A stretch of DNA of 64,000 nt from a virus (Duplodnaviria > Heunggongvirae > Uroviricota > Caudoviricetes): IMG/VR virus record IMGVR_UViG_3300038393_003162, positions 1-64,000 of that record; one strand, 5' to 3'. Below the pieces are notes generated by a model. It ran no database searches, was not told where the DNA came from, and was given only the letters and a program-made list of their open reading frames with translations. A program made the position numbers and the translations under genes. This document shows, piece by piece, positions 18,701 through 57,888 of this stretch (position 1 is its first letter; the number at the start of each line of letters is the position of its first letter).

Positions 18701-18875
18701 GCTTAACTCTCCTGATGTCTAGGGGATGTCCGCACCTCTAAGGGTACATCCGTCTTTAACACCAACCAACGAATAAAAACATTAGAATATTCAAGTATTT
18801 GAATTTGATTTTTACTGTACGTGTCTATCATGCCTAGATGCTTATAACTACACCTAGGCATGATAGACAAAATAG

Positions 18876-21574: not shown

Positions 21575-21749
21575 TTCGTTTCCCCTTGGCACTATCGCCA
21601 CCACTTAGGGAGTATCCGGTTATTGACCATCCCAGGAGAATGAAGATAACTAAAGAGATTGACTATAGTTGTATGTGTATATCATGCCTAGGTGCTTATG
21701 ACTACACCTAGGCATGATATACAAAATAGCTCAGACGCTCCGTATGATC

Positions 21750-23822: not shown

Positions 23823-24266
23823 TTAGTCCTTGTGAGCCGTGAACGCCATGAATCCATCAACCCACATCGTAATCAACCGAACAATATCGTAATTGTGGTT
23901 CGGTTGTTTCCACCACGCACTCGAACCCGTCAGGTCGCGGCTCTCGATGGGGACCTTATATTCCTCTTCGGTCTCCGTGACTTCCGATACCAAACCCGAA
24001 GGTAACGCCATGACCGACGACGCGAGACGATGAACCTTGCTGCCTCCCTTGACCTCCGTGATACCGTCTAGGCGAATGTAGACACATCCTTTCACGCCAT
24101 GAACGACTTCAGGAAGCAATGGGAATTCCTTCCCAGAGACCGCATCAGCCAACGCCATCCAACGGAATTGTTCCGTGGAGTAACCAGAGTAAGCCGGGGT
24201 TTCCTTGCCGATCTGACTACTGACGATTTGCCCGGCATCGGCTCGAACCTTAACCTTCTTGCCCAT
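23823..24266 (-). CDS. hypothetical protein
   Basis: GGAGG RBS; motif at 24300. Confidence 0.7.
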   Translation of the reverse strand: MGKKVKVRADAGQIVSSQIGKETPAYSGYSTEQFRWMALADAVSGKEFPLLPEVVHGVKGCVYIRLDGITEVKGGSKVHRLASSVMALPSGLVSEVTETEEEYKVPIESRDLTGSSAWWKQPNHNYDIVRLITMWVDGFMAFTAHKD

Positions 24267-24511
24267 GTGTCACCTCCAGAGTTATGTTTCATCCGTGGCT
24301 AAGGGCGTATCCGGTTATTGGTCACATGCCAGAACTATAGCGTCCAGAATTCGGAATGTAAAGCACAATCTTACGCGAGACAAATATGAGTGTACGGATG
24401 TTCCAGACATGGGCGTATAGACAAAATACCTGCAATAAAAAACGGGGAGCGATGAGCAACAAGCCCACCACTCCCCGCCCACCCCACCCCGGAGGAAGTT
24501 TCAACTAAATA

Positions 24512-25114
24512 TCAGCAAGTGTGAGATTGATACATGGGTTTTCCGTTCCAGAGCTTGGCAGCCCCGTGATCCATGCTGATCATTGCTTCGCCCATGAACC
24601 ATTGAACCCGTTTGGTCATGGGTTCGCTGTCTTCCTTGAACTTGTCGCGTCTTGCCACGACGCGCTCCGTCATCCCATGTTCATCATCTTGCTTGACCGT
24701 CTCTTGGCAAATTGCCCTGATGACGATCGACTTCTCCTTAACCTCCACAACTTGGTAAAAGTCGATATTGGTCTGGTCGTATCCCCAACTGTTGTAAATG
24801 ATGTCCCGTTCCTTGAACGGATTCGGCTGATCGGAACCCCGCTTAAGCTTCTCCTCCTGCTTGTGACGATCGGCAAGCCGGTCAAACCAACCGTTAACGG
24901 TCTTCTCTCGAACCTCTTCGCTCGGATAGGAGTTGTGGAAGTCCCACTTGACTTGACGACCACTCTTCCAACCGTAGGCACAGATCATGACCGTACCCTT
25001 GGTCGAAGTCGTCTCGTAAAACCACACCTCAGCCCCAGGAACATCCGTCCGCGTGACTTGACGGGCGGTGTCCTTGCTGGGATAGACTCGCTCCGTTTGC
25101 TTCGGTCTCGCCAC
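24512..25114 (-). CDS. conserved phage hypothetical protein (SWGYDQTNIDFYQV)
   Basis: recognisable phage/plasmid motif; motif at 25151. Confidence 0.7.
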   Translation of the reverse strand: MARPKQTERVYPSKDTARQVTRTDVPGAEVWFYETTSTKGTVMICAYGWKSGRQVKWDFHNSYPSEEVREKTVNGWFDRLADRHKQEEKLKRGSDQPNPFKERDIIYNSWGYDQTNIDFYQVVEVKEKSIVIRAICQETVKQDDEHGMTERVVARRDKFKEDSEPMTKRVQWFMGEAMISMDHGAAKLWNGKPMYQSHTC

Positions 25115-25167
25115 GATCTTGACTCCCTAGGTTGCGTTACCTCACGCCTCTAAGGATGCGTCCGGCT

Positions 25168-25443
25168 TTAGAGAATGTGGAAGACATAGACACGGTCATT
25201 GTGATCGACGAAAAGAATGTCCTGGTCCAGTGAATTGATGTACAGATCGAAATCGATATACTTCAGGAGGTCTTTCTTAACCCCCTCAACCTGCTCAAGA
25301 TAGTATTCCGCATACGCCTGGCGACTCTCGTAATCACCTGAGCATTGTTCCCGGAATCGCTCGACCGTGGCGTGACCCTTGCCGTAGTGTCCGACGTAGG
25401 CAGCCCAGGCTTCCCGCTCTTCTGTGGTGATTTTCTGAGGCAT
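25168..25443 (-). CDS. ArdA-like antirestriction protein (short, C-terminal-domain-like)
   Basis: G.YES...YAEYYLE...LLKYIDFDLY...L...VYVF resembles the ArdA C-terminus; acidic. Confidence 0.6.
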   Translation of the reverse strand: MPQKITTEEREAWAAYVGHYGKGHATVERFREQCSGDYESRQAYAEYYLEQVEGVKKDLLKYIDFDLYINSLDQDILFVDHNDRVYVFHIL

Positions 25444-25611
25444 GGTCGCATTCCTCTGTTGGAGTTGATTTGTCACTAACGTTGAGGGCGCGTCCGGTTT
25501 TAACCTCCTGTCACGTAAAACATCAAGAAGTTCTTTCATGATGGTGCATGTCTATGCCTAGGCATACACATCCAATATATGACGTACATCTAGGCATAGA
25601 CAAAATAATTA

Positions 25612-25812
25612 TTACTTAACGCTCCCTTCGATCTCGTAAATCTTCAGGTGATAGGCGTTAAGGGATTGCTGTTCGGCAAACTTCCTGAGAACGGTTTTAG
25701 CGTCGGGTCCTTTGACGATAACACTGTTATCCTTGCCAAAGATTCGATCCAGAAAGCGAATAGGGGGATTCTGAGCTTTGGCATAATTGAACCGAATTTC
25801 AAACGATCGCAT
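25612..25812 (-). CDS. hypothetical protein
   Basis: 66-aa ORF whose stop abuts a palindrome. Confidence 0.5.
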   Translation of the reverse strand: MRSFEIRFNYAKAQNPPIRFLDRIFGKDNSVIVKGPDAKTVLRKFAEQQSLNAYHLKIYEIEGSVK

Positions 25813-25913
25813 AAACGTATTTGGTCCTTATCCTTGGAGGAAAAAAATACGGTGCCGAGGGTTAGTCGGCACCGTGACAGCCTTACCTATCTTACCAATT
25901 TGTTTTGTGGTAT

Positions 25914-26537
25914 TCAATCGAGTTCTGAAATTTCCTCAGAAGCGGCGAAGACCGCTTCCAGCACCTTTTCGTTGCCGCCAACGTGACGATGCGAGCCGTC
26001 CGGATTGTGAAGTTCGAAGCCCGCCGCGAGTCCGAGGGGCGAGGACGGGACGACGTTCGACTCTTGGGCGACGATATCGGTCACGCCTGCCGTGAGCCAA
26101 GGATGGTATTGTTTCCATCGATACTCACGCAGAACCCCTTCGTACTCCCAGGTCGGCACTCGGTCCTTGAGCGGCTTGTGGTGGGCATACCGCAGGACTT
26201 CCCCGTACAACCCGCGATCCTTGAGCCACTTGACCGCTTCCTCGCGAGTGGCGAAGAACGGATGATAACCGAGGTTGTGCCCGAAGGGGGCGAACTTGGG
26301 ATCATCCGGCTTCTCGATCTCGCCCTGAAGTTCCTTGTTATAGCCGTGGATCGTGTACGAGGCAGTCGTATACATGGTCCCCGACTTGACGAAGATCAGT
26401 GGCAGGTAACAATAGCCGAAATGGTTGTCCTTGGTGCCGTCCCCCACCGTGGTCAACCCCGTTCCATAAAGCGGGGCGTGCCACCGTTGAGGACACTTGT
26501 TCCGATCGGACGGGTCATCGAATCGCATGATGATCAC
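25914..26537 (-). CDS. hypothetical protein
   Basis: motif at 26575. Confidence 0.7.
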   Translation of the reverse strand: MIIMRFDDPSDRNKCPQRWHAPLYGTGLTTVGDGTKDNHFGYCYLPLIFVKSGTMYTTASYTIHGYNKELQGEIEKPDDPKFAPFGHNLGYHPFFATREEAVKWLKDRGLYGEVLRYAHHKPLKDRVPTWEYEGVLREYRWKQYHPWLTAGVTDIVAQESNVVPSSPLGLAAGFELHNPDGSHRHVGGNEKVLEAVFAASEEISELD

Positions 26538-26590
26538 CTTGTGCCAAGGGTGAGAGTGTAGTTCTTCCGTCGCTGAGGGCGTGTCCGGCT

Positions 26591-27220
26591 TTAGAGAATG
26601 TCCTGGTCGAGCTTGGCGTCTTCCTCGTCGGCGTTCTCGTATGAGTCTTTCTCGACAATATGCAGCCAGTGAGCGTCAGAGAACATTTCCCAGACCACGC
26701 GAACAGCAATTGCTGCTGCCTCTACTGGAGTGGTCGCCATGCCCTCCGCTCGGGATTCGACATCATCAGGAGCTTTCGGGTAGTTGCTGATGGTGTGCCA
26801 GGTGTTGACGACCCAGCCCTCACGCTCGTAGAAACCGACAATGCTTTGTGACTCGATTGCTTCAGGATCAATCGTGATGTCGTTTCCGACCTTGATGATC
26901 CCCTCGTCCTCCTCGACCGTCACCGGAAGCCAATGCTCGGAACGTAAAAGCATCTGCATGCCTTGGATGACGAGGTCGCGAATCGTCCCGGCATGCTGCT
27001 TGCCATTCTCACGAACCTTATCAGGGTCCACCGGGCGATAACCGGTGATGTTCTGGTCAAGGAACTCATGTAAACCGCCCTGACCAATCCGAACCATGTG
27101 GACGGTCTTTTTATCCCACCGTTCATAAGACTTATCGTAAGTCGCCGCACTCCAAAACGGCTTCTGATCGTGACCAATCCGCTGCACCTTGACCGCTTCA
27201 CCCTTAACGAATTGACGCAT
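26591..27220 (-). CDS. hypothetical protein
   Basis: motif at 27263, AGGAG RBS; stop at the motif edge. Confidence 0.7.
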   Translation of the reverse strand: MRQFVKGEAVKVQRIGHDQKPFWSAATYDKSYERWDKKTVHMVRIGQGGLHEFLDQNITGYRPVDPDKVRENGKQHAGTIRDLVIQGMQMLLRSEHWLPVTVEEDEGIIKVGNDITIDPEAIESQSIVGFYEREGWVVNTWHTISNYPKAPDDVESRAEGMATTPVEAAAIAVRVVWEMFSDAHWLHIVEKDSYENADEEDAKLDQDIL

Positions 27221-27277
27221 GCTAATGTCTCCTGTATGGGAGTGGCGTTTTACTCCACTCCCATAGGATGTATCCGG

Positions 27278-27634
27278 TTATTGTCCGTCCCGAATCAGCC
27301 GGTCGAGGAGGACGTATTCCTGCGGATCGTCACTCATGAAGACAGCCGAGCCACCATCTTTAAAATCGTGTCGCTTGATGGTGATGGCATTGACATTCTT
27401 CATATGCTGAAGAATGTAGGTTTTTCCATCCTCACCAGTGACGATTGCCGCTTTGCCGCCGTAGGTCCCATAACTCGGCTTACGCCAGATGCCATATTTG
27501 TCGGTTGTCTTCCGACTAACCCGATAGCCGTGGGTCTCGTTGTGTTCCACCTCGAAGACGCACTTGCCCCGATTATTGCCGCCGATCGGGTAGTCGTCAA
27601 TCTCCAACTTCTTAACCGGATTGGAATAGTTCAC
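27278..27634 (-). CDS. hypothetical phage protein
   Basis: GTG start with AAGGA RBS; stop inside the motif. Confidence 0.65.
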   Translation of the reverse strand: MNYSNPVKKLEIDDYPIGGNNRGKCVFEVEHNETHGYRVSRKTTDKYGIWRKPSYGTYGGKAAIVTGEDGKTYILQHMKNVNAITIKRHDFKDGGSAVFMSDDPQEYVLLDRLIRDGQ

Positions 27635-27915
27635 TGTCTTACGTTCCTTAAAGGAGTGTGGTTGATCCGTCGGTGAGGGCGTGTCCGGTTTTAGTCGACC
27701 TTGTCCTTGTTCTGGTCGCACCACTTGTCGAGCGAGCCATTCTCTTCACACGGCAAACAGAAATAATACCGTTTGCCGAGCTTGTCCGGTCGCTTGTCCC
27801 CTACCGAAAGATTCGATTCACTTGACTTGATCTTGCGCTTACAGGTAACGCAAGTGTGCGGCATAACCTTTCGCCCTCCTAGTGATTGTCAGTCCACCAC
27901 TAAGGGCGTGTCCGG

Positions 27916-28365
27916 TTATAGCGAGAGGGCGTGCTGCGACCAAAACGCCTCCGACTCAGCCCGTTGTTCCTTCGGCAAACTCGCATCATGCGGCTCGCGT
28001 GGTGCGTACGGACCTCCATATGCAGTAAACAAAATATGTTTGCCTTTGTACTTGCCGCCGATCACCGTCACGGTACGCATAGGACGAGTCGGTCGATCGA
28101 CCATGCGACTCGGGTATCTCCGTCCTTCCCGAATCTTATAAACAACCTCGGATTCGGGGACAGGTGGACCGCCGGTGCTGGGACCGTGAATGCCGCACTC
28201 AGCCGTCATCCCTTTGGGAAGCTCGATCGTTTCGGCTATGAAGTCCTCGATGCGGTTGGCATACCGTTCCGCGATGAACGCCAAGACTTCAGATGAGACG
28301 TGGTCGATGTGTGAATTCTCAAGATCGATGATCAAAACATGGTCCTTATATGAATAAACACCCAT
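27916..28365 (-). CDS. conserved phage hypothetical protein
   Basis: CGIHGP..GG.PVPESEV.Y..R..R...SR; LFTAYGGP.APREP. Confidence 0.7.
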   Translation of the reverse strand: MGVYSYKDHVLIIDLENSHIDHVSSEVLAFIAERYANRIEDFIAETIELPKGMTAECGIHGPSTGGPPVPESEVVYKIREGRRYPSRMVDRPTRPMRTVTVIGGKYKGKHILFTAYGGPYAPREPHDASLPKEQRAESEAFWSQHALSL

Positions 28366-28369
28366 CCTG

Positions 28370-29143
28370 ATCTAAGACCAAGATGGGCGTTCCCCATTCG
28401 CGAAGCCGATGAATCACACCTGACTACTCGTTTCTTGTTACGGTCCTCGTGGGTGTGAAACGCCCTAGGGCGTGAAATTAAATGATCACGGTCCTCGCGT
28501 CATAACCGGCGTCCTCCGGTCTAGGGTCTGGTTCCCCGTCCGTCAATGAGCTATAGCTCTCGGGAGAGGAACATCAACCGTGTTCAAGGTTCTCCGCAGG
28601 GCATCACAAGCCCAAGACTCAGGGACTCGCTCGGATTGGCACGGGTGACCTCCCGTCGTTAAGGTCGCGGTTGTTTCTTGCGTGCGTCTCTGACAGAGAG
28701 TTGCGCGATTGAAAGACCAAACGGGACCAGTGTGAGAGTTAGTCCCGTTTGGTTTTGTCTCAGAAGGGCGGGGATCGAATCATGGGAAGCGTTCCCAAAG
28801 TAAGTGATACCCTAAAGCCCACTCAAGGTCTACCGCTAGAGCTTGCTAGCGGGCTTTAGGGTTCGCCGCAATGTGGGCGGTCGCGCCGGGCAGGAGATCA
28901 AGCATTCAAAGAAAGGACAAGCATGAAATGTTTAATTGTCCACCCCCTTTCTTCGTTAGAGAATTGGAACCTCTCGCCGATCAACATGGCTAGACCCGAG
29001 GACTAAGAGCCGAAACACTTTCACTCTCTTGGTCCCCACACGAATGAGTGAGTGACAGGTCGACAGCATCGTTTTGTCGTTGCGCGTGTTTGGCGATGAC
29101 TTCGCCCGTCAGCATCACTCGTCCGTCTCGTTTCGGACACCCT
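28370..29143 (-). ncRNA. putative large structured ncRNA (~770 nt)
   Basis: no ORF of 60 aa or more in any frame; starts directly after motif 29144; many stems, e.g. ACCAAACGGGAC/GTCCCGTTTGGT (28716-28753) and CCCTAAAGCCC/GGGCTTTAGGG (28810-28861). Confidence 0.55.
28453..28489 (-). CRISPR. solitary degenerate copy of the array-2 CRISPR repeat
   Basis: GTGTGAAACGCC-CTAGGGCGTGAAATTAAATGATCAC versus array-2 GTGTTAAACGCCTCTAGGGCGTGGAATGAGGATCAC. Confidence 0.7.
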
Positions 29144-29401
29144 TAAGGGTGAATCCGGCTTTAACAATGATAGCTCTGGGCGATGCCCTTGTAAACCCCT
29201 AGCGTCTAAAAACCGGATTCACCCTCGCATTAAAAAACGAAAAAATAAAACCCCTGCACCTCCCGAAATGGAAGGACAGAGGTTTTATTGGGTAAAGGCG
29301 AATTTTGCGTCTCGTCCTATAGTCCGTCCCTGTATGCGTGTCCTTGGTAGACACAAATGGTTAACAAACAACACCTCTGAAAGCTAATCACCTTCAGAGA
29401 G

Positions 29402-29545
29402 CTCCCGAGGGGGGAATTGAACCGCCCGACCTCCAGCTTATAAGGCTGGCGCTCTATCGCATCAAAGGCATTGGTCATACTTCGCCAGGGTGAAGACATA
29501 ACCAATGTCGTTGTTCCCTTAATGCTACCACTGAGCTACTCGGGA
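29402..29545 (-). tRNA. tRNA-Ile(UAU) with a 71-nt insertion in the D-loop
   Basis: acceptor TCCCGAG/CTCGGGA, D stem GCTC/GAGC, anticodon arm CCAGC-CTTATAA-GCTGG, T loop TTCAATT; insert ~29455-29525; no encoded CCA; upstream TTTACA-18-TATAGT promoter. Confidence 0.8.
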
Positions 29546-29706
29546 AAATATTGTCAGACGTGAAACCCGCATCATATAAAGTGACAACGCCTTGGGCTTT
29601 TGCTTTTGGCTACCGATCGCTCGGCTGTCGGGGTTTCAGGTCTCACGCCTGACACTTTATACTATAACGTCGCCATCCCTCCGATGTAAACCTCCTTCTA
29701 ACAAAA

Positions 29707-30711
29707 TTATGCCGCCTGATGAGGAATCCCTAACGTCCCAATGACCTTCCCCACGACCCACTCAGCCGCCGCAGGCACTACCGCATTTCCCAACTGCTCC
29801 AGAGCGTACGTCTTGCGAGGATCGAGGATGTAGCCTTTCGGGAACCCCATCGCTTGACGATACTCATCAAGTGTCAACATTCTCATCCACTTATGATCTT
29901 CCGAGATCAAACTGTATCGATCCTTTTTTGTGACAGTCCCCAGAGGGCGGTTGATGCTCCTGGCTTTCCCGACCGTGCGATTCGAGCCAAAGTAAGGGAG
30001 TAAGAACTTCTCGCCCACGGGGAACACCTTGCGAGACATCCGCTTGACGAATGCCTGTGTTGCCTCGCAATTGTCCCTGACCAGGCTCCACCCCGGTCCC
30101 TTGTCCCGACGCATGATCCTCTTGTAAGGCACATGCTTGACAGAAGGATAGACGAACTCAAGCGGTGCCTTAGCCACGTCAGCACGCAAGAAAACCATGA
30201 ACAATCGTTCTCGGTTCTGAGGCACGCCGAGGTCGGCTGCGTCCAGGATGATCGACGAGAAGTGATAGCCCGGTCCTATGTTCTGAATCAGGTCTATCCA
30301 GGTACGATAGACGCTCCCCTTCAATGCCTTGTCGTCACTCTCATTCCACGCCTGGAACTCAGGCACATTCTCAACGACGGCAGCAAGGGGTCGCTTGCGT
30401 GCGATACACTCATGAACACACCATGCCGTCTGACGACTCTTCGCGTGGTTCCAGTCTTTCGTCTTGCCCTTAGCGCGAGAATGCCCTTGACAACATGGAG
30501 ATGCCAGTAAGATGTCATGATTTGGAACTTTGGTCCAGTCGGCGAGTTGGAGGTCCTGGCACGAGTGAACCGTATCGGGATGGTTCTTCGCATGTGCAGT
30601 CACGGCATCCAGGTTGTGGTTTGCCGCCCAGATGACGCTAACCCCGGCTTTCGTCGCCCCGGTGGTAAACCCCCCAGCACCAGCAAATAAGTCAATTGCT
30701 GACACCTTCAT
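29707..30711 (-). CDS. DNA cytosine-C5 methyltransferase
   Basis: DLFAGAGG, SPCCQGHS, ENV, QNRERLF, LGNAV. Confidence 0.93.
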   Translation of the reverse strand: MKVSAIDLFAGAGGFTTGATKAGVSVIWAANHNLDAVTAHAKNHPDTVHSCQDLQLADWTKVPNHDILLASPCCQGHSRAKGKTKDWNHAKSRQTAWCVHECIARKRPLAAVVENVPEFQAWNESDDKALKGSVYRTWIDLIQNIGPGYHFSSIILDAADLGVPQNRERLFMVFLRADVAKAPLEFVYPSVKHVPYKRIMRRDKGPGWSLVRDNCEATQAFVKRMSRKVFPVGEKFLLPYFGSNRTVGKARSINRPLGTVTKKDRYSLISEDHKWMRMLTLDEYRQAMGFPKGYILDPRKTYALEQLGNAVVPAAAEWVVGKVIGTLGIPHQAA

Positions 30712-30783
30712 CTATAGCTCCATAAAGAAAGGGATGAGTTGTTGTCCTCATCCCTAGAGGGAGTATCCGGTTATTGGACTATC

Positions 30784-31464
30784 CTAGATGGTGATCTCGC
30801 CGAAGTGGTAGCTCTCGACCTCGTCCCGCTTCTCCAGGATAGCTTTCACCCGCTCGACATTATCAACAGGGATGTAGAAAAGCACATCCTGATGATTCGC
30901 CATTTGATATCTGTCATAAGCGGGTTCGCCGATCGCATTGCCGAGAGCGATGGTCTCCTTAACTCCCATATCCTTACTCACAACCACCGTAAGCAAGGAC
31001 ATCGGCTCTTCCTCATCCTCGTCATCGAGGGAATCAGGAAGAATTGCTCTCACTTCCATGACCGCCCCGTCATCATCCTTGACGAGTTGAAGGTCGGTAA
31101 CATTGACATCGGGCAAGCCGCTCCCTGTGAGCGACAAGACCAAGACGGTATCGCCACCAAGGGGAGAATCCTTGATGGCTTGTTGAATCTTGGCGAGTGC
31201 CATATCCAACGTCACAGGCATTTTGATACTCCTATCTTTCCACCTTGATGTTCGGATACTTCTCGGCTTTGTCAACGACGTTAGTTTGAACACTTTGTAA
31301 CGATCCGACACAACCCATGCCGAGATTCCTTGTGATTTCGCCCACTCAGAATCCGCAACCACCTCAAACAGTTTCTTCAGATGTGGGAACGCGACTCCCT
31401 TCTCCGCATCATTGATTGCCGCTTGAAGATCAGAAGGATTGACTTTCTTCATGGGTCTCGACAT
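30784..31464 (-). CDS. hypothetical protein
   Basis: motif at 31515, GAGG RBS. Confidence 0.6.
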   Translation of the reverse strand: MSRPMKKVNPSDLQAAINDAEKGVAFPHLKKLFEVVADSEWAKSQGISAWVVSDRYKVFKLTSLTKPRSIRTSRWKDRSIKMPVTLDMALAKIQQAIKDSPLGGDTVLVLSLTGSGLPDVNVTDLQLVKDDDGAVMEVRAILPDSLDDEDEEEPMSLLTVVVSKDMGVKETIALGNAIGEPAYDRYQMANHQDVLFYIPVDNVERVKAILEKRDEVESYHFGEITI

Positions 31465-31946
31465 CAATAATTCCCTCAAAAACGTCCATAGGGATGAGTG
31501 GGCTTTCCTCATCCCTATGGGCGTTTCCGGTTTTAGTCTAGCCGACGGCTCTCGATGCTTCGATGCTCTCTCTCGATGTCAGACCAGCCCTGACGCACCA
31601 AACAAATGAGGCACATATCGATCATTCGTTGATCTGGTTCTTGATCCCCCCACGGATTCAGAGCCAAGGTCTCCATGCACTCGAAGTGTCCAGAATCAAC
31701 CGTGGTATAACCTACCTCTGTGATCTGGATAGTGTCGAAGATCGTCGCGTCATTAAAGTTGACAAAATTAATCGAGTACCCCACCATCGGCTAAATAGCG
31801 AGATTTGCTTCCCGTTCAGCCAAAACATACTCACCGTTCTTGTCGAACAACATGAACTTAACTCTGTACATTACTGTTCAATCTCCACAAAGAAAGGGAT
31901 GAGTTGGCTTTCCTCATCCCTAGAGGGTGTGTCCGGTTGTTGTCAC

Positions 31947-32702
31947 TCAGAGAGCGTCGAAGTCCTGCCCGCCGTTGTGATCGGGCGGAATGTCACGATG
32001 ACTCGGATCATAAGACTCGTCTTCAGGCGAGATCGGATCGGGATACCTCGATCCCGGTCCCCCTTCGACATCCTTATCAGGAAAGTAGAACTGGTCATAC
32101 GTCATCGAAACCATCTTCTCCACCCACGCTGCCGCGTTTCGCTTCAAGGCAAGCATGATCATGTCATCATGATTGCCGGGAACCGCATCGCCTTTCAGGT
32201 CGAGACGATAAGCCAAATCCCGAAGCGACCGTGTGTTCAGCCTCGCCTTGTTCGCGAGATTCGTGACCAATTCCGCCGTGATTGGTCCATTGAACTTGAT
32301 CTGGAGCCACCGTCCCCACTTGGGATAGCCTCCCTCGATCCAAGCAAACCGCTCCGCTGGGTTGTTGGGTCCGACCCATGTGTGATCATGGATCTCGTCG
32401 GGAGGCGGCTGAATGTTGTTCTCGTGTCCTTCCTTGAGAAACGGATCGTCTCCGCTCTCGTCGCTGTCCAAGTGCTTCTCCGCACAGTCCTCGCACGCGA
32501 CCATGTCGGACATCACATCTTCTTTGACGAAGAAGTTGGGAACCCAATACTGTTCCTCAGCTTCCGACTGCTCTACCTGCTTGTTACAGAAACAGCAGGT
32601 CACGATTGGGTCATTGTCCCACTCATCCAGAATGTTGGCTAGCGCACTCAATTCCCCTGTTACACGATTGAGTGCCGTCATCAGTCGCTCACGCAATTTC
32701 AT
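31947..32702 (-). CDS. hypothetical protein, paralog of 32816..33553
   Basis: CCFC..CEDC; IQPP.DEI.D.TWVGPN.PAER.AWIEG.YPKWG. Confidence 0.75.
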   Translation of the reverse strand: MKLRERLMTALNRVTGELSALANILDEWDNDPIVTCCFCNKQVEQSEAEEQYWVPNFFVKEDVMSDMVACEDCAEKHLDSDESGDDPFLKEGHENNIQPPPDEIHDHTWVGPNNPAERFAWIEGGYPKWGRWLQIKFNGPITAELVTNLANKARLNTRSLRDLAYRLDLKGDAVPGNHDDMIMLALKRNAAAWVEKMVSMTYDQFYFPDKDVEGGPGSRYPDPISPEDESYDPSHRDIPPDHNGGQDFDAL

Positions 32703-32815
32703 GGCTCTTTGGTCTCACTTAGAGGTAAGGTTGTTCCACCACTCAGGGCGTATCCGGTTTTTAGCAAGTAAAAGAAACAGAGGGGGAATATATTCCCCCT
32801 CGTTCCTGTGGTCAC

Positions 32816-33553
32816 TTACTTGCCGACACCGTAGTATTGGTCATAGGTCAGCGACAGAACCGAGTCGAGGTGATCCGACGGGTTCTGTTTCAAGGCACGA
32901 ATGATCATGTCCTCGAAATCGCCCGGAACGTTCTCACCCTTCAAACCGAGACGGTAAGCCAGGTCTTTAAGAGAGACGACGTTCTTTTTCGCCTTCTCCA
33001 TCAGCCCCTTGACCAATTCCTCCGTAATTGGACCGCTGAACTTGATCCGGAGCCACTGTCCCCACTTGGGATAGTTCCCCTCGATCCAGGCAAGCCGCTC
33101 AGCCGGATCGTTAGGTCCAACCCACGTCGAATCGTAGATCTCATCCCGAGGCGGCTGAATCTCGTCCTCGTGTCCTGCCTTCAGGAAAAATCCCGCAGCC
33201 CCGAGATACTGGATGTGTTCACTGGCACAACTCCCGCATGACGCCAAGCCCGCCCTGGTCTCGGGAGCGACGTAGAAATCCGAAAGCCATTCTTCCTGAT
33301 GTGACTCAACCAATGTCGCCGTGCGACAGCAGAAACAGCACGACACGAGCGGCTGCTCTTCCGGAATCCCCTTCTCGATCACTTTGGTCAAGTTGCTGAT
33401 GGCGGGGTCGAAATGTCCCAGCAAGACAACCCCCGACGCGATCACCGTCAAAGGCGACGGCTTGACGTGTTCCGACTCCGACAACCGAGCGATCATTGCC
33501 CTCTTCGCCCGATCCGTCGCCTCTCTGATTTGTTGGTTTCTTGTCTTTTCCAC
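32816..33553 (-). CDS. hypothetical protein, paralog of 31947..32702
   Basis: same conserved block; start approximate. Confidence 0.7.
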   Translation of the reverse strand: MEKTRNQQIREATDRAKRAMIARLSESEHVKPSPLTVIASGVVLLGHFDPAISNLTKVIEKGIPEEQPLVSCCFCCRTATLVESHQEEWLSDFYVAPETRAGLASCGSCASEHIQYLGAAGFFLKAGHEDEIQPPRDEIYDSTWVGPNDPAERLAWIEGNYPKWGQWLRIKFSGPITEELVKGLMEKAKKNVVSLKDLAYRLGLKGENVPGDFEDMIIRALKQNPSDHLDSVLSLTYDQYYGVGK

Positions 33554-33609
33554 GTGCGTTGAACTCCCTAAGGTGAACTTAATCTCACCCCTAAAGGATG
33601 TATCCGGGT

Positions 33610-34062
33610 TTAGGACTGGTCCTTCTCGATCGCGACCAATTCCCGCAACTGAACCCGCATTCCCTCGCACTGCTCTCGAAGAGTCACGGGATCAATTCCC
33701 CCGAGCCGTTTACGATTCCGACTCTCGTTGTCAATCATATAACTAATGATGTTGTATTTAGATCCAGTCCCCATATCCAATTTCGTCAACACCATCCACA
33801 CGCTCGACACGCTCAGACGACCCCCGCCCATCGCATGCTTGGCAGGCGGAACGTAAGCAGGATTCTTGATGATGCCAAGCCACTTCTCAGTCTCTTGTTC
33901 AAGCTCCTGGATAAGTGGATCATCCTTCCCCAACAACAACCCAGCCGCGTTGACCAACGACCCTATCAGAGTCGGATCGGATGAGTCCAGACGTTTCCGG
34001 ATCTCAGCGACGATCTTGGCTTCAAGCTTCTTCACCTTCTCAGGCTTTTGTCCCTTGCTCAT
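33610..34062 (-). CDS. hypothetical protein
   Basis: motif at 34097, GGGGAG RBS; stop at the motif. Confidence 0.7.
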   Translation of the reverse strand: MSKGQKPEKVKKLEAKIVAEIRKRLDSSDPTLIGSLVNAAGLLLGKDDPLIQELEQETEKWLGIIKNPAYVPPAKHAMGGGRLSVSSVWMVLTKLDMGTGSKYNIISYMIDNESRNRKRLGGIDPVTLREQCEGMRVQLRELVAIEKDQS

Positions 34063-34324
34063 CGTATCTCCCCTTGTGTTGACTTTACTTCACCACGCAG
34101 GGCGTATCCGGTTATTGGTCGCTTCAACCCAACACTACCTGTAACCTTGTTCATCTCGTCAAGTTTGCTCTCAACCGTCACGTTTACCTGTATCTCCCAA
34201 CGCGGGCGGGTCGCCTGACACCCACAAGCACATACACACATACACAAAATAAACAATCTCATATCTGTTCCTCCATGAAAAAAGGGGAGTGAGAATGTTC
34301 TCACTCCCCTTGATGTCGATCCGA

Positions 34325-35545
34325 TTACTTGCCGTTGCGAGCCGGGATCGAGGTCTGGTTCGCTCGCACCAACTTGTGAAGCGACTCGAAGTCGGCTTCA
34401 TCGTTGAGCAGTCCGTTCTCCTTCAGGAAGACGAACATGGTTTTCTGCGAGTCCCTCACAAGCTTGTACAAGATACGTTCAAGCTCTTTTTCGCCCGTCT
34501 TCTCGCCCGTGAGGAACTTCTTCGTCAGAGTCGTGCAGAACTCCCGAACCGCAACGAATTCGCCAGGACTGATCATGTTCTCAGCCCACTTGCGAACCAT
34601 CTTGGTCGACACCTGCATCCGGGGGTTGGTGCCGTTCCCCTCGCCCTCTTTCTTACCCTTGCCTTTGCCTTTGCCTTTGCCGCCGCCCTTGCCGGAACCC
34701 GAAGAGCCGTTGGTCTCCCCCTCGTCTCCCTCGTCTCCCGAATCCCCGTTATCTCCCTCGTCGCCATTCTCGTCGAACGGGGAATTGTCGTCTTCGTTGT
34801 CGTCGTCGGTGTCCATGTCCTCGGTCGCATCGGCGAGACGGAACTTGATCAGTTCCAGCGTCACCTTCTTGCCCTCACGGATCATGCCGTAGAACTCCTC
34901 CTGGAGTGACTCCGACAATTCCGTGATCTTAGCACAGACACGCCACGAAAGCTTATTGGGGGCGTTCTTGGCAGGAACCCGAGCGAGTCGCTCCTGAATG
35001 TCGCTCGGGCATTCCAGAAGCTTCGCGTACTGGCTCACCACCGATTGGTCGTAGCCGATGATCTCTGTGGCGATCTGCTTGGACGTCATCCCGCACACGT
35101 CCCGAGCATACTTGATGAGCCCCGCGTAGTCCATCGCGGTCATCGGCTCGCGGTCGAGGTTCTCACCCTTGTTGTACTTCAGCCGGTCAATGTTGTTCCC
35201 TTTCGGGACCAAATTAACCTTTAACTTGAAGTCGGGCTCATGGACGTGGATAACCTTGCCGTCCTCATCCGTATAATCGAACCCGTTGACGATCAGCATC
35301 CCCGCCGCGTGACGATTGAAACCCGCAACCACATCTAGGCTTTTGTCGGGAAGCCGCGTAACGTCGATCGGATCGCGGTTGCCCTCGATCGACATCCGAT
35401 ATGCGAGCTTCGGAACCCACTGATCCTCCGGGTCCACACCCGCCGAAAACCACCGTGAGTGGTTGTTCTTCGGATCAGCCGAAATGTGAAGCGGGGACAC
35501 CATCGTGATCGACTTCACATCGATGACATTCGGGTCTTTCGCCAT
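34325..35545 (-). CDS. ParB/Spo0J-like protein (ParB N-domain plus HTH) with acidic and G/K-rich linker
   Basis: DVVAGFNRHAA, ENLDREPMTAMD, MTSKQIATEIIGYDQSVVSQYAKLL. Confidence 0.75.
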   Translation of the reverse strand: MAKDPNVIDVKSITMVSPLHISADPKNNHSRWFSAGVDPEDQWVPKLAYRMSIEGNRDPIDVTRLPDKSLDVVAGFNRHAAGMLIVNGFDYTDEDGKVIHVHEPDFKLKVNLVPKGNNIDRLKYNKGENLDREPMTAMDYAGLIKYARDVCGMTSKQIATEIIGYDQSVVSQYAKLLECPSDIQERLARVPAKNAPNKLSWRVCAKITELSESLQEEFYGMIREGKKVTLELIKFRLADATEDMDTDDDNEDDNSPFDENGDEGDNGDSGDEGDEGETNGSSGSGKGGGKGKGKGKGKKEGEGNGTNPRMQVSTKMVRKWAENMISPGEFVAVREFCTTLTKKFLTGEKTGEKELERILYKLVRDSQKTMFVFLKENGLLNDEADFESLHKLVRANQTSIPARNGK

Positions 35546-35783
35546 GATCAAACCTCTCTCACTTGAAAATGTGTTCAGAACTCGTTTGTCGCGTCAGTCT
35601 CGTTTCCGACACCCCGAAGGATGTATCCGGGTTTTCTTGACCGATCCGATGGGCTTATTCTAGACTCGCCCATTCCAATCCGTCAACCAATTTCTTCACA
35701 ATCGGTCACATTTTTTCCTGGTAGTGTACACTCGTTCCTAACATTGTACACTACCAGGAAACGTAACCGCATTGACAAAATAC

Positions 35784-36371
35784 CTAGGGCTTGCTTCTCA
35801 ACCCGCCCTCGTACAGTATCCGATGGATCGCACGCCAAACCATGTCGTCCTCGATGTTGCCGCCCCCATCAGCTTCCGCCCACGAGACAATCAACTCCAT
35901 CAACTCGTTTTTCTTCTCCCGGAGTAACCGATTTGCCGCCTCACGGTTACCCTTGCGAAGACGCTTGATGATCTCCTGTCCCGTAAGATAAACAGACGTC
36001 CGAGGATAGCTCTCCGCGTCATACACGTAATCACGACTCAAGTCCAACCGCCCGACCACCGCACCATCCTTGCCATCCTTGAAGAGATCCGACGATGCCG
36101 CCTTGCAGGTCGACTCCACCATCGGCCAGGCGTTCAACTCGATCAGAGGGAACACGTCATCCTTCCAAACCGAAGTCCACGGCAACCTCTCACACATCTT
36201 CAGGAAATCCGCCCGCGACGGTGGACGGCTGAAGTTAAAGACGGACGGGCGGTAATACGCCGGGTTCGTCTCAATGTCAGACGGATAGCCCGCAATCTCC
36301 AGCGGCTGCACCCCCGCCTCGACCGCCCGTGACCAATCACTAACCTTCAACACCCAAATCTCTGTCCTCAT
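35784..36371 (-). CDS. hypothetical protein
   Basis: motif at 36412, AGGGGG RBS. Confidence 0.7.
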   Translation of the reverse strand: MRTEIWVLKVSDWSRAVEAGVQPLEIAGYPSDIETNPAYYRPSVFNFSRPPSRADFLKMCERLPWTSVWKDDVFPLIELNAWPMVESTCKAASSDLFKDGKDGAVVGRLDLSRDYVYDAESYPRTSVYLTGQEIIKRLRKGNREAANRLLREKKNELMELIVSWAEADGGGNIEDDMVWRAIHRILYEGGLRSKP

Positions 36372-36438
36372 CAGATTGTTCCCCCTTATGATTTGGTCAT
36401 CTCTTCATCACTAAGGATGTGTCCGGCTATTACTCAAA

Positions 36439-36744
36439 TCAGAGCGACAATGCCAAGCCCGTCTCTTCGCTGATGATCCGATGAAGATCGCTCACGAACA
36501 CACCAGCAACCGACTTCTCGGAGAGCCTGAAGCCAGGCGCACGACCAATTTTGTAAAACGTCACCGTGTACGGATCGTCTGGCGTCAACTCCACCTTGAT
36601 CTTCTTCCACTGCCGACAACCACGAATGTTGAAGACCAAAGCGTTCGTGTCGGCAATGTAATCCGTCGTCCCCATCATCACAAACGCCTTATGACCAATC
36701 TGATCCTTGATCGTCTGAGCAACCCTGTGCTTAGTCAGCGTCAT
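36439..36744 (-). CDS. conserved phage hypothetical protein
   Basis: AQTIKDQIG..AFVMMG...I.VEL..DD.YTVTF; GAGG RBS. Confidence 0.7.
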   Translation of the reverse strand: MTLTKHRVAQTIKDQIGHKAFVMMGTTDYIADTNALVFNIRGCRQWKKIKVELTPDDPYTVTFYKIGRAPGFRLSEKSVAGVFVSDLHRIISEETGLALSL

Positions 36745-36906
36745 TGGCAACACCTCAGATGAAGAGTGTTCGGTCTTACACCCCAAAGGGTGAATCCGGT
36801 TTTAATCTCGCTCTAAAATTATAAAAAAACCGGATCAGCAAACCATAAAGGTCTACCGATCCGGTTCATTGAATTGATATGATGTGATGCCGGAATGCTC
36901 AGAAGA

Positions 36907-37536
36907 TCAGGCTTGAACCAAGCTGTTCTTCACGTTCCCGCGACCCTTCTTGGGAGCGGGAATCGCTTCGGTCTTGGACGCCTGACCCTTCTTGACGACC
37001 ACGGATACCGGAGCGTCAACCTTGCGTGGTCGTCCAGGTCCCCGCTTCGTGACAGCCACGGACACCGGAGCGTCAACCTTACGAGGACGACCCACCGGAC
37101 GCTTCGCCTCGTCAGACGGTCGCGTGTCGAACACTATCCAGCCGTTGCGTCCCTTCCTCGCGTCCACCTTGTGAGGGAAGTGGAGGTTGACGAGCTCCGG
37201 ATATGCCCGGAAAAACTTCGTGACCGAGGCACGAAGCCGACGCTCGCTGTTGCCGTGCCGCCCGAGAATCAACCCCTGGTCGGAATCCGCCACGTCCTTC
37301 CGAATCCCCACCTGTCCCGTACTGGCATCGAAGCCAAGACGGATCTTATCCCCCCAGGCTAACCCGAACTTCTCCAACGCCACCGCACCGAAGATCAGCA
37401 TGTAACCGGGGCGATCCGGCTTGCCCGTCTTGATGAACTGGACCCACGGTCCGCGCCGACCCTCGCCCGACGGAGCCGACTTGCCATTGGTCTTCGTCGC
37501 ACCCGTCGCTTTCTTCTCGTACAACTCGAAAGCCAT
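36907..37536 (-). CDS. AT-hook-containing DNA-binding protein
   Basis: KRPVGRPRK and KRGPGRPRK within a duplicated GRPRKVDAPVSV unit. Confidence 0.7.
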   Translation of the reverse strand: MAFELYEKKATGATKTNGKSAPSGEGRRGPWVQFIKTGKPDRPGYMLIFGAVALEKFGLAWGDKIRLGFDASTGQVGIRKDVADSDQGLILGRHGNSERRLRASVTKFFRAYPELVNLHFPHKVDARKGRNGWIVFDTRPSDEAKRPVGRPRKVDAPVSVAVTKRGPGRPRKVDAPVSVVVKKGQASKTEAIPAPKKGRGNVKNSLVQA

Positions 37537-37774
37537 CGGAACACCTTCTTTCTGTGATGAACTGGTTGAATGCCCCTCACAACTACGGCAAAGGGCGTGT
37601 CCGGTTTTTGGTCTTGATGACCTTGTTCTTGAAACCTAGCCGACAAATCATCTCTTCGGCTAGACGCGGCTCACAACAAGCAAGTCCTGTGCCCGTCCAC
37701 GATCACGATGACAAAATAATTTCAGGCACCACACCCTCTATACGGACAAGACCCGGATCAGGTTCAGACAATTC

Positions 37775-38146
37775 TCAGAGAATCGTCAAAATTCGATCCG
37801 AGTTGAACCGGAGAAATCTCCCCGACCCGTCATACTCCGCATAGTAGCCACGATGACATGTGGGACAATAAATATGGCATCGCTTCAACTCCCCCTTAAC
37901 CATCGCATGCCATACCGTAGCGTCACGCTCGCACCGGACCTGAACGACTAACAAGTCGCTAACCTCGTAGGTCGCCACCGTCGTTGGATTGCCAGGTGAT
38001 CGCCCCTTGATCGCTTCTCCCTTCCCTAAGTCCTTATCAGACATAGGATAAGGCATGCTGATTGTCTCCAAAATCTCTCCCGTCGATATCTGACGGACCA
38101 GCATGTTCGGTTTCAGTGTCACTGATTCGACACGCTTTTTCATCAC
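37775..38146 (-). CDS. hypothetical protein
   Basis: AGGGGG RBS; TTGACT..TATTAT promoter at ~38181-38210. Confidence 0.6.
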   Translation of the reverse strand: MMKKRVESVTLKPNMLVRQISTGEILETISMPYPMSDKDLGKGEAIKGRSPGNPTTVATYEVSDLLVVQVRCERDATVWHAMVKGELKRCHIYCPTCHRGYYAEYDGSGRFLRFNSDRILTIL

Positions 38147-38399
38147 GCCCCCTTTCAGAAACGACCGTTCTTATGCCTTAATAATAAGCGTTACGTTGCG
38201 GCAGAGTCAACAGAATAATTCAAAGTCGTTAAAGTTTCTATTTCGAACACCTACTACTACAGCAGTAAAATCCTGACATGTTTACCATAAACAACATTTA
38301 TTGTGTTACGATCCCTCAAAAGCCCTCGCTGCCATTCAAGAATTCTCCGTAAATGAGCCGAAAAGCAACGATTTGCTCATTTACGGAGAATTCCCCTGC

Positions 38400-38723
38400 T
38401 CACCCCTTCACAGAAACATGCTCTCCTGTGATCGTATGACCAGAGTGAACAACCGCTTCAAGCGTGTCCACAATGCAGGTCATCCCGTAACAATTCAACT
38501 CGCCCCCACTCGCTACATGAGAAGCAACCTTCAAGAAATCGCCCTGTAGCCGTTCCGCCTCTTCCAGGTCCCCATGAACGACAACTACCGCCTTAGCCAT
38601 CATCTTCAATGCCGTAGCCGTCGGGTCGTCCAACGAACCGAAGACCCGAATAACAATCTGGTAACGACGCTGTTTGTCGTACAGCTTGCCGCTTGCTGTC
38701 CGATCCCGAGCGAACATGTTCAT
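38400..38723 (-). CDS. hypothetical protein
   Basis: motif at 38770, GGAG RBS. Confidence 0.65.
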   Translation of the reverse strand: MNMFARDRTASGKLYDKQRRYQIVIRVFGSLDDPTATALKMMAKAVVVVHGDLEEAERLQGDFLKVASHVASGGELNCYGMTCIVDTLEAVVHSGHTITGEHVSVKG

Positions 38724-38789
38724 TCTGTTAACTCCATCCCTTTGAGCGTGGGAGATACACTTTCCACGCTCAAAGGGTGCGTCCTGTCA

Positions 38790-40202
38790 TTAACCGTTGA
38801 ACGACTCTTCCATCAGCATGCCCGAAACACGAAAGCTGAAGTCCTGTAGGTCGCGTGTACAGTCCCCCGACTTCGTGATCGCATGGCTGAACTCTTCCAG
38901 CACGACCTTGATGAACAGGTAGCCGGTCGACTCCAACGTGTCACGGGACAGCCCCACCGTATCCCGCCGATGATCGTAGTAGCCGCCTACAACCCGTCCA
39001 GCGTCCATCACATCGGCATAGCCTTCCAAGACAGGCATCGCACGCCCCCGAGTCAAGCCCAGCCGCTCCAGACACTTCCACACCCGCTGGCACTTCTCCA
39101 GGTGCTTGGCGGTCAAGTCCACCTTCACCCGACCCAATGCCTCGAAATGATCCAAGACATCGATCGCCGTCTTCACGCCCATAGACGCCAGAGTCTCGTG
39201 AAGCTCCGAAGAGACGACAACAGCCGTATGCCCCTTCATCTCCACCGCATCCACGAAACGGCTCTCCTCGCAGCACACCGCCTGCTCGCCGAATACCTCC
39301 TTCCATGCTTGGAGCCACCGCTGCGACACCTCAACCCCATCCGTATCGTATGAGCGAATCTTCATATAATACGAATCAAGTTCCATCTCGTAGGCGTTCA
39401 GGTCCCCTCCCGGTCTCAGGTTCCGGAGATACTCGACCAAAATCGAAACCGGAGCGTTCCGGATCGCACGACCAATCACCTCGCGAGAATCGCTCTCGCT
39501 GATGATCCGTGCCTCGTTCAGATGGATCTCGTTCAGGTTGTAGTCGAACAGCGACCGACTCCCGAACTCCCCAACCAAAACACCCTTGCGATAGACTCGC
39601 GCCGGTGTCCCGTCGATCCGCTTCGGCATGATCGGCTCGGACGGCTCCCAATCGCGATTGAACATGAGGAAATGCTTGGCGAGCTCGTTGTAGTACGCTT
39701 GGACGGCTGACGTTCCCTCAATGTAGATCCGCGTGACATCCTTCTTCGCCCGAATCTCTTCCTCTTCCACCCACGTAACCTTGGCATTCTTCGTGTCGAT
39801 CCCCTGAATCACGCAACCGTCGATCGCGTTCGACACGAACTCGCGAACCGCCATCCCGACATCGGTCCAGTCGATCGCACCGAACCCCATGTCAAAACCC
39901 AACGGCTTCGACTTCCGCCCAGATCCCGAAATCTGCTTCATGACCACTTCGTTGACGGAAACCCGACGCCCCGCCGCATCCTTCGTTGCTCGTGAGTCCG
40001 TCTCGAACTCGAACCCGTCATTCCCAAGGTAAACCCGGAACTCGACGCCCTTCCTCAAAAGAAGAGCAATCGAGAACTTGAACCCACTCCCGAACTGTCC
40101 AATCAGGCTCTCGTTGCCACGTGCCGCCGACGCTCCAACAATCGTCAACAGTTCCGTGCCAACGACGCCGGGATTCTCGATGAGAAGGTACGTCTTGCTC
40201 AT
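38790..40202 (-). CDS. GHKL (HATPase_c-like) ATPase with permuted motif order and HExxH-like C-terminus
   Basis: IENPG, IGQFGSGFK, then AVREFVSNAID; C-terminal VVLEEFSHA. Confidence 0.7.
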   Translation of the reverse strand: MSKTYLLIENPGVVGTELLTIVGASAARGNESLIGQFGSGFKFSIALLLRKGVEFRVYLGNDGFEFETDSRATKDAAGRRVSVNEVVMKQISGSGRKSKPLGFDMGFGAIDWTDVGMAVREFVSNAIDGCVIQGIDTKNAKVTWVEEEEIRAKKDVTRIYIEGTSAVQAYYNELAKHFLMFNRDWEPSEPIMPKRIDGTPARVYRKGVLVGEFGSRSLFDYNLNEIHLNEARIISESDSREVIGRAIRNAPVSILVEYLRNLRPGGDLNAYEMELDSYYMKIRSYDTDGVEVSQRWLQAWKEVFGEQAVCCEESRFVDAVEMKGHTAVVVSSELHETLASMGVKTAIDVLDHFEALGRVKVDLTAKHLEKCQRVWKCLERLGLTRGRAMPVLEGYADVMDAGRVVGGYYDHRRDTVGLSRDTLESTGYLFIKVVLEEFSHAITKSGDCTRDLQDFSFRVSGMLMEESFNG

Positions 40203-40265
40203 GGGGATCTCGCTTTCCTGGGGTGAGAGAATGTCTATCCGTCGCTACTCAGGGCGAATCCGGTT

Positions 40266-40523: not shown

Positions 40524-40684
40524 CGCTCATCCGCCCTCCATCTAATGCCTACCTCGCCTCAAAGGGTGAATCCGGTTTTTGCCCGGCATTTTAAAAAATA
40601 AAAATGCGGTTGCGGTCCATTGTGCCACAACGACACACGGACCGCAACCGCATAATAACCGCCTACAGGATTGACAAAATATCT

Positions 40685-41995: not shown

Positions 41996-41999
41996 GGTC

Positions 42000-42272: not shown

Positions 42273-42311
42273 AAATTTAAATGAGTAATGTATAGATATT
42301 ATTGAGTTGAA

Positions 42312-57011: not shown

Positions 57012-57888
57012 GTGTTAAACGCCTCTAGAGCGTGGAATGAGGATCACCAGAGGCTTTTCAACTCCGATGGCGGTCCGTGTTAAACGCCTCTAGGGCGTGG
57101 AGTGAGGATCACCCTCTTGCCAACACACGATTCCTCCCGGCTTGGTGTGCTAAACGCCTCTAAGGCGTGGAGTGAGGGTTACTTTCATTTGAAATCGAAC
57201 TCAACAGTGTTAAACGCCTTTAGACCGTGGAATGAAAGTCATGCGTGCATAATTCGCCGGACGTCCTGGTTTTCGTCCTGTGTCGAACGCCTCTAGGGCG
57301 TGGAGTGAGGATCAGGTTAACTTATTGGTTGACGTCCTCAACTGACCGCTTGTGTTAAACGCCTCTGAGACGTGGAGTGAAGATCACCACGGCGCGTCCG
57401 ATGTCGTGTCGCGCGGACCGGATGAGTGTTAAACACCTCTAGGGCGTGGAATGAGGATCACTTCTTCGTCTAGCAATATCCTAATAATTTGGTATGTGTT
57501 AAACACCTCTAGGGCGTGGAATGAGGATCACTCCACTATTTCAAGGGCATCTACTCGAAGATGCATGTGTTAAACGCCTCTAGGGCGTGGAATGAGGATC
57601 ACCGTGATTGAGCGTACACGTCGAAGGTATGTTCTCGGTGTTAAACGCCTCTAGGGCGTGGAATGAGGATCACCATCCAAGGACCACCTCCCTGATCTGC
57701 GCCACCGGGCGTGTTAAACGCCTCTAGGGCGTGGAATGAGGATCACCTCGTGCGTGATGCCATACATCCGCCGCACCTCGTGTGTTAAACGCCTCTAGGG
57801 CGTGGAATGAGGATCACCAGATACGCTCCCACAGCCAAGCTGTATTAGGGTCGTGTTAAACGCCTCTAGGGCGTGGAATGAGGATCAC
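57012..57888 (-). CRISPR. CRISPR array 2 (orphan): 13 repeats of 36 bp, 12 spacers
   Basis: plus-strand repeat GTGTTAAACGCCTCTAGGGCGTGGAATGAGGATCAC at 57012, 57077, 57147, 57207, 57280, 57352, 57426, 57496, 57567, 57638, 57711, 57782, 57853; degenerate copies on the left imply the leader is on the right. Confidence 0.97.

Follow-up and report, generated by a model that had tools for sequence, protein, structure and literature searches.

An expressed, uncatalogued large RNA gene of a phage with a degenerate CRISPR repeat near its predicted 3' end

An expressed and uncatalogued large RNA gene was identified in the genome of a phage, with RNA seen over its 5' ~450 nt only. The gene lies in the window analysed here, the first 64 kb (64,000 nt) of the 253,022-nt IMG/VR record IMGVR_UViG_3300038393_003162, which is classed as a provirus and is 43% complete. 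As an explanation that we tentatively favour, the gene could give one folded RNA of ~800 nt that is cut by the Cas6 of the host, leaving a 700-nt decoy for the host CRISPR proteins in the manner of an oversized RNA anti-CRISPR. The initial annotation of this stretch had overlooked a cassette at its 3' end, consisting of a degenerate CRISPR repeat, a 35-nt spacer-like stretch and a terminator-like hairpin, which is the only part of the unit with a recognisable mechanism.

The phage contig was recovered in soil and rhizosphere sequencing runs. It carries genes for IleRS, GluRS, Ro60, RlaP, RNA ligases, tRNA-His guanylyltransferase, a weak sigma-factor match and a Cas12b/h-like nuclease, together with ~27 tRNAs at Rfam level, the main cluster of which is at contig 188-223 kb. 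For the phage GluRS, the named entries among its 120 best relatives were Isosphaeraceae, Tautonia and Planctomycetaceae (53-56% identity), from which a planctomycete was deduced as the probable host, with Planctomycetia as the likely class. The nuclease (window 43327-46101, minus strand) is a 924-aa type V protein most like Cas12b and Cas12h, scoring below the Cas12b cut-off, and the array beside it (42312-43203) has a 36-nt repeat and no spacer match in the contig. The unit was also considered as a tracrRNA for this type V array and rejected, as the complementarity was no longer than 9-12 nt.

No ORF of at least 60 aa was found on either strand between 28366 and 29316, and this 951-nt gap is the longest of its kind in the whole contig, confirming the ORF-free stretch that had been described from the letters alone. 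The strong motif copy that had been placed at the start of the unit is also there, on the minus strand, with a sigma-70-like promoter immediately upstream of it (Table 1); the expression from this motif that had been supposed was not borne out. Sigma-70-like sites were found within 70 nt of 7 of the 40 motif copies. Two such sites were found against 1.1 expected, a count that is not significant, and both directly precede an RNA gene in the correct orientation. A host-type promoter would fit an RNA made by a quiet provirus, in which it could stay on. At the other end, the terminator-like hairpin is likely, from its predicted fold, to be the end of the transcript. As promoter, repeat and terminator-like hairpin are all oriented in the same way, we infer transcription from the minus strand. 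As a separate observation, ~60 oriented copies of the contiguous 19-nt motif are spread over window 7000-42000 (minus strand) and contig 89-107 kb, mostly 21-39 nt ahead of a ribosome-binding site and in one case before a sigma-factor-like gene, so the motif could be a phage promoter or operator.

Table 1. Positions in the window of the features discussed in the text
Feature	Position	Strand	Remarks
Whole unit	28357..29160	-	Predicted ~800-nt transcript, promoter to terminator-like hairpin; ORF-free; both ends predicted
Sigma-70-like promoter	29167..29195	-	10/12 consensus matches, 17-nt spacer; predicted start near 29160
Repeated, oriented intergenic phage motif, strong copy	29146..29160	-	31.7 bits (matrix of 39 other copies); putative phage promoter/operator
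Divergent copy of phage motif	29211..29225	+	17.2 bits
Long interrupted stem, 5' part	29040..29126	-	Pair probabilities 0.83-0.99
Interrupted hairpin named in the initial annotation	28998..29037	-	Probabilities 0.5-0.9
Hairpin with A/U loop	28907..28955	-	Helix probability 0.96
15-bp helix with apical hairpin	28809..28862	-	Probability 0.99
14-bp hairpin between 5' and 3' parts; possible internal terminator/boundary	28716..28753	-	Probability 0.98; bridged by RNA contig X10
Three stems of the initial annotation	28861-28851/28820-28810; 28753-28742/28727-28716; 29036-29026/29009-28999	-	Located in the sequence
Part covered by exact RNA contigs	28672..29118	Not given	All 7 runs cover 28774-28924
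Hairpin with palindromic tip, 3' part	28531..28572	-	Probabilities 0.98-0.99
Ribosome-binding site and five-codon mini-ORF ending in repeat	28486..28517	-	Such a site in 18.7% of unit shuffles; probably chance
Possible self-target	28486..28503	-	ATG, then 12/15 match to spacer start; positions 1 and 3 mismatch
Degenerate CRISPR repeat, 37 nt	28453..28489	-	5-bp stem, 4-nt loop, 8-nt handle-like end; stem probabilities 0.81-0.96
Spacer-like stretch, 35 nt	28418..28452	-	No full target found
Start of possible second, very worn repeat	28406..28417	-	Weak: 1.3% of random sites score as well
Terminator-like hairpin	28357..28391	-	16-17 bp, short U run; pair probability 0.98-0.99; not flagged by terminator scan
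139-aa gene downstream of unit	27916..28335	-	Widespread phage family; no own motif copy
tRNA-Ile(UAU)-like gene	29401..29545	-	60-75-nt hairpin insert in D-loop; called in 65/80 trial removals of insert
Cas-less CRISPR array of phage, source of reference repeat	57012..57888	-	13 copies, score 22-36; 36-nt repeat

Expression of the unit was seen in community RNA. Among the 20 listed runs containing the unit, 11 were metatranscriptomes, and in all seven of these that were examined, from rhizosphere, the exact contigs (eight in total) fell within the part given in Table 1. No exact RNA contig was found elsewhere in 24001-34000 (four runs) or 25001-45000 (three runs), where the other records were imperfect pieces of 30-39 nt, leaving 9-19 kb of flank free of exact RNA contigs. 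The DNA control run X9 gave 31 records at least 99% alike, with depth in 28 of 30 bins. The low-coordinate ends of the contigs were also clustered, with six out of seven at 28762-28774, within 12 nt of each other (0 of 2,000,000 random placements). The RNA runs were selected for containing a 1-kb query, which does not explain the shared 28774-28924 or the clustered ends; they are all 2025 rhizosphere samples that may come from one campaign, and contigs give neither level nor strand. In contig X14, a remnant that we take to be sequencing adapter fits minus-strand RNA if the library was of the usual stranded kind. The large non-Rfam RNA that had been proposed for this stretch is therefore supported over the 5' ~450 nt, but the 3' part has no RNA contig (28352-28671); at depths of 2-7 such a gap is uninformative, and libraries of this kind would not retain a 104-nt product.

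These contigs also bear on whether the stretch acts as DNA. An origin or operator cluster between the divergent motif copies, with the RNA signal resulting from DNA carry-over, would account for these copies and for several perfect palindromes; both strands fold about equally, and RNA libraries can contain DNA. However, the exact RNA contigs are confined to 447 nt with a 150-nt core common to all seven runs, while the DNA contigs are spread evenly, making a DNA element highly improbable as the explanation.

Folding of the unit was predicted from the single sequence, with pair probabilities taken from the ensemble. In comparison to shuffled sequences, the unit had z-scores of -4.8 on the minus strand and -4.2 on the plus strand (20 shuffles per strand). 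The background of the contig for 385-nt windows was z -1.26 (sd 1.86), and values as low as those of the 5' half (z -2.7) and the 3' half (z -3.9) were reached by 9 and 5 of 60 contig windows, respectively, so the predicted folding exceeds the contig's own background only moderately. The three stems that had been noted are all present (Table 1), but the pair described as nested within one of them (28852-28846/28839-28833) overlaps the outer arm by 2 nt and is not favoured by the ensemble, which prefers a different set of inner pairs inside the 15-bp helix 28862:28809. Tetraloops were few in the prediction, and loop-loop complementarity was nearly absent. The only loop-loop match within the RNA body is between the A/U loop (28937-28931) and the single-stranded 5' half of the degenerate repeat (28482-28476), a weak complementarity of 7 nt, all A-U.

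A possible alternative, although we hold it to be on the doubtful side, is that the unit gives two products: a stable, ornate RNA of ~400-450 nt (29160 to ~28760-28711) that would serve as a scaffold or sponge in the manner of GOLLD or ROOL, and a 3' part that is a separate minor read-through, an independent solitary-repeat unit or a repeat relic. The RNA contigs concentrate in the 5' part, and the six clustered ends, 9-21 nt before the 14-bp hairpin, weakly suggest a border between two RNAs. The region 28711-29160 folds independently (z -4.4 alone), and the available text of PMC12286853 gives the precedent of GOLLD and ROOL as large phage RNAs without known function that are often near tRNAs. 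On the other hand, contig X10 spans the 14-bp hairpin and reaches 44 nt beyond it, and the 3' part has no promoter-like site of its own. The bridging by X10, together with the lack of any motif copy or sigma-70-like site found inside the unit, was counted in favour of a single molecule. Furthermore, the helix that would close the 5' part is predicted (0.89) only with a start near 29146 and a stop near 28758, and falls to 0.00-0.03 with the start at 29160.

No relative of the unit was identified among known RNA families. The Rfam scan that had been suggested as a check was run with 4227 models and gave no hit that reached the gathering score and none of note at E<=10, including RNase P, tmRNA, SRP, OLE, group I and II introns, small ribozymes and Y RNA. 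No hammerhead core or group II domain V motif was found in the unit. A Y RNA was considered, as the phage encodes Ro60, and rejected, given the negative Rfam result and because folding from the predicted start does not favour the closing helix. The kinship with GOLLD and ROOL that the initial annotation had raised did not hold up against either model. For GOLLD (RF02032, a model of the conserved 3' domain), there was no match at E<=10 in the unit or the contig, with the model weakly positive in 5 of 14 control genomes; for ROOL (RF03087), there was likewise none at E<=10 in either, with all control genomes blank, so for this model the contig scan alone is weak. The unit is like GOLLD and ROOL in its size class, its phage or provirus origin, its many helices, the nearby tRNA gene and its detection in community RNA. 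It differs in matching neither model, in lying outside the main tRNA cluster, in its few tetraloops and near lack of loop-loop complementarity, and in carrying a CRISPR repeat; the stable presence in cells that marks large ornate RNAs was seen, from contigs, for the 5' 450 nt only.

Searches for homologues were also negative. Using blastn with the unit, phages gave tRNA matches only and plasmids gave none. DNA patterns of the unit were absent from viral contigs and matched metagenome contigs twice, both in coding sequence. With unit and repeat patterns in species genomes, one search gave nothing and the other gave at least 120 single matches from about two thirds of the collection, with no array. 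No homologue was found through single-protein locus searches, in 22 phage records with the family of the 139-aa gene, in 5 of 34 records with GluRS relatives, or in 301 Planctomycetia genomes at the DNA level. The contig itself contains only a 43-nt likeness to the unit's 5' end, at window 35634-35592 (minus strand) ahead of a ParB-like gene, which spans the motif and the first hairpin, with the hairpin kept through a two-sided change. The 5' 650 nt match nothing known, and no account of a large structured RNA fused to a CRISPR repeat was found in the accessible literature that was searched.

The cassette, in comparison, could be connected to the phage's own array and to arrays of the probable host class. 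Against the repeat of the phage's cas-less array, the degenerate repeat scored 22, compared with null maxima of 12 in the shuffled contig and 14 in 2000 unit shuffles, which argues firmly for a link to this array. In the array (57888-57012), the repeat is I-MYXAN-like and the leader contains a sigma-70-like promoter. Another clear solitary copy of the repeat is at contig 107398, behind a promoter (score 27), with weaker ones at 143574, 120120 and 99870 (scores 16, 15 and 13). Of the solitary copies outside the unit, two each lie behind a sigma-70-like site (L003:3363-3398, minus strand, and L004:19574-19609, plus strand), the former also directly behind the phage motif; both are classic Racr or Cracr candidates. 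The cassette of the unit folds at z -5.7 with the repeat stem exposed in a junction.

In Planctomycetia, the Cas6 family PF09559 was present in 49 of 401 genomes. Arrays with 32-36-nt repeats scoring 3-14 against the phage repeat were found at 16 of 20 Cas6 loci (null mean -5.6, sd 3.8, maximum 8), and one locus typed gene by gene was I-MYXAN; the phage array repeat therefore resembles, at the sequence level, the type I-MYXAN repeats of Planctomycetia. When compared with 12 Planctomycetia repeats, the degenerate repeat was identical at 14-15 of the last 21 nt and had a full 5-bp stem (5/5 pairs) in the same 4-nt-loop register as all 12. Stems were compared by position because MAFFT aligned the phage repeats one base out of register with the host repeats. 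The commonest host spacer length is 35 (175 of 527), equal to that of the spacer-like stretch. The handle of the phage repeat differs from that of the 12 aligned host repeats and, with host repeats alone as reference, the site in the unit scored 14.4 bits, second best in the contig and reached by 6 of 20 shuffled contigs; the link to the Cas6 of a given host is therefore a putative one. No host array with the phage's own repeat was found among the genomes and metagenome contigs searched: its pattern occurred in the 401 Planctomycetia genomes at counts like those of the reversed control, and no such array was present in the 20 loci inspected. The array repeat also has no Rfam model. Neither Cas6 (two models) nor Cas7 was matched in the available contig, and as this is 43% complete, the phage itself could encode matching Cas proteins.

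Cas6 leaves an 8-nt handle, a rule that matches the layout of the host repeats. Applied to the degenerate repeat, it predicts a cut between 28461 and 28460, which would release 700 nt upstream and 104 nt downstream. In the explanation that we favour, transcription would proceed on the minus strand from the sigma-70-like promoter through to 28357, and the type I-MYXAN Cas6 of the host would bind and cut the degenerate repeat. The 700-nt upstream piece would keep Cas6 bound to its 3' hairpin and could be loaded there with Cas7, in the way that RacrIF1 is, while the handle of the 104-nt downstream piece would fold away. The folded body could keep the decoy stable and may have a second role. For RacrIF1, the available text of PMC10651486 describes a piece upstream of the cut that binds Cas6f and a filament of Cas7f, but neither Cas5f nor Cas8f, and that is in competition with crRNAs. 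As RacrIF1 acts through its upstream piece, a stabilised decoy was favoured over two RNAs, a guide, a leader or mini-ORF and a DNA element. Against a single decoy, the repeat is ~670-680 nt from the nearest promoter-like site, and expression was seen for 28672-29118 only.

By the account of Racrs (RacrIF1, RacrIC1) in the available text of PMC10651486, the unit resembles them in having a lone repeat, its Cas6-type stem intact, between genes of a phage, downstream of a promoter and with no adjoining cas gene. The mobile element here indeed carries one repeat-like unit at a distance from cas genes and arrays, with a faint second repeat that may follow and within a contig that is 43% complete. 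However, ~670 nt of folded RNA lie between the promoter and the repeat, whereas the Racrs tested in that text were chosen with a promoter within 250 bp, and no promoter lies within ~250 bp upstream of this repeat. The products of RacrIF1 are 70-76 nt in that text, as opposed to the predicted 700-nt decoy, and the types also differ, as the unit is I-MYXAN-like and 'I-B' is absent from the main text of PMC10651486. By analogy, the unit would most likely work like a Racr; it was not classed as one because the promoter is too distant and inhibition is a prediction only. In its most far-reaching form, which seems to us rather unlikely in its entirety, the unit would be a fusion between a CRISPR repeat and a large structured phage RNA from a class not yet described. 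The host Cas6 would both mature and cap this RNA, which would serve as a stabilised giant anti-CRISPR produced even when the provirus is otherwise silent, and would connect large ornate phage RNAs with counter-defence against CRISPR for the first time.

The 104-nt piece could instead be the active product, as a crRNA-like guide of the Cracr or CreR type that loads the Cascade of the host and acts as a repressor of a promoter. This promoter could be in the host cas operon or at the partial match behind the ATG at 28500, which lies 48 nt upstream of the spacer-like stretch. Likeness to Cracr, CreR and CreA (bioRxiv 10.1101/2024.10.29.618823 and 10.1101/2023.03.10.532045, in their available text) includes the degenerate repeat, the spacer-sized stretch, the faint sign of a second repeat and, close by, a partial match preceded by ATG, as in host mini-arrays; phage Cracrs include type I-B cases in the available text of the former. 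Two-repeat mini-arrays near cas6 were found in 4 of 20 host loci, and in two of these four the spacer matches 10 seed positions behind ATG, ~80-115 nt upstream. Since the self-matches lie behind ATG, the PAM is given and such regulators exist in this host group; the CreR-like mini-arrays are those beside cas6 in the I-MYXAN loci L193, L195, L196 and L200. For the unit, an ATG-flanked match like its own arose within 200 nt in 7 of 3000 random trials, and anywhere in the contig in 15%.

However, this match breaks at seed positions 1 and 3, was noticed post hoc and can also be explained by an alternative RNA pairing. No full target of the spacer-like stretch was found in the contig, no ATG-flanked seed over 8 in the 20 cas loci, and no ATG with a 12/14 seed match in the 401 Planctomycetia genomes, among which the true host is not sampled. 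Matches of at least nine PAM-proximal positions to a cas or toxin promoter, as for Cracr and CreR, were absent from the contig, the 20 cas loci and the 401 genomes. In addition, the second repeat is weak, the 104-nt product is predicted to fold with its handle paired and, unlike the known guides in the available text of those preprints, the cassette ends a much larger RNA. A guide function is therefore improbable to us, and the decoy remains our preferred reading.

The position of the unit ahead of the 139-aa gene could also suggest a long cis-acting leader or attenuator for this gene, which lies behind the terminator-like hairpin and has no motif copy of its own, and the 3' arm of the repeat is complementary to the 5' arm of the terminator over 7 nt. 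Yet truncated transcripts formed no anti-terminator in the predictions, in which the terminator pairs at 0.98. A CreT-like toxic mini-ORF can be placed in the same category, as five codons with a ribosome-binding site end in the repeat, but such a site is at chance level in shuffles and its codons are not rare in this phage, in contrast to the rare codons of CreTA. Both a leader and a mini-ORF are very unlikely. The family of the 139-aa protein comprises 702 relatives, at most 60% identical apart from the protein itself, with no Pfam, PADLOC, NCBIfam or PDB match.

On the other side of the unit, the tRNA neighbour that had been reported is present as a tRNA-Ile(UAU)-like gene ~240 nt upstream, but its supposed connection to the unit was not upheld. 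As it has its own promoter-like (29690-29661) and terminator-like (29400-29374) sites, the gene probably forms a separate transcript, judging from sequence. ARAGORN found no tRNA in the window, and the Rfam tRNA score was 25.1 bits, below the threshold of 29. The D-loop insert is a possible non-canonical tRNA intron, and an uninterrupted tRNA-Ile(UAU) is at contig 211060-210989. Elsewhere, four tRNA-like genes lie just downstream of the Ro60 gene (L007:780-1500, minus strand; contig 184.8-185.5 kb), each with an insert of 50-65 nt of similar shape in the 5' anticodon arm and only a weak YrlA score; these inserts could be phage tRNA introns or Ro60 partners. Near-perfect 19-bp inverted repeats were also seen in intergenic gaps at window 15220-15266, 16557-16604, 18822-18869 and 21676-21723.

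To summarise, if the cut and the inhibition hold, the reach of RNA anti-CRISPRs would widen to include I-MYXAN systems, as well as RNAs that are ten times longer than RacrIF1. The unit offers a testable handle, with a predicted Cas6 site at a known position and a CRISPR type present in 49 of 401 Planctomycetia genomes. Even if the cut or the inhibition fails, there would still be a large RNA that is expressed and uncatalogued, from a huge phage whose host group has been little studied.
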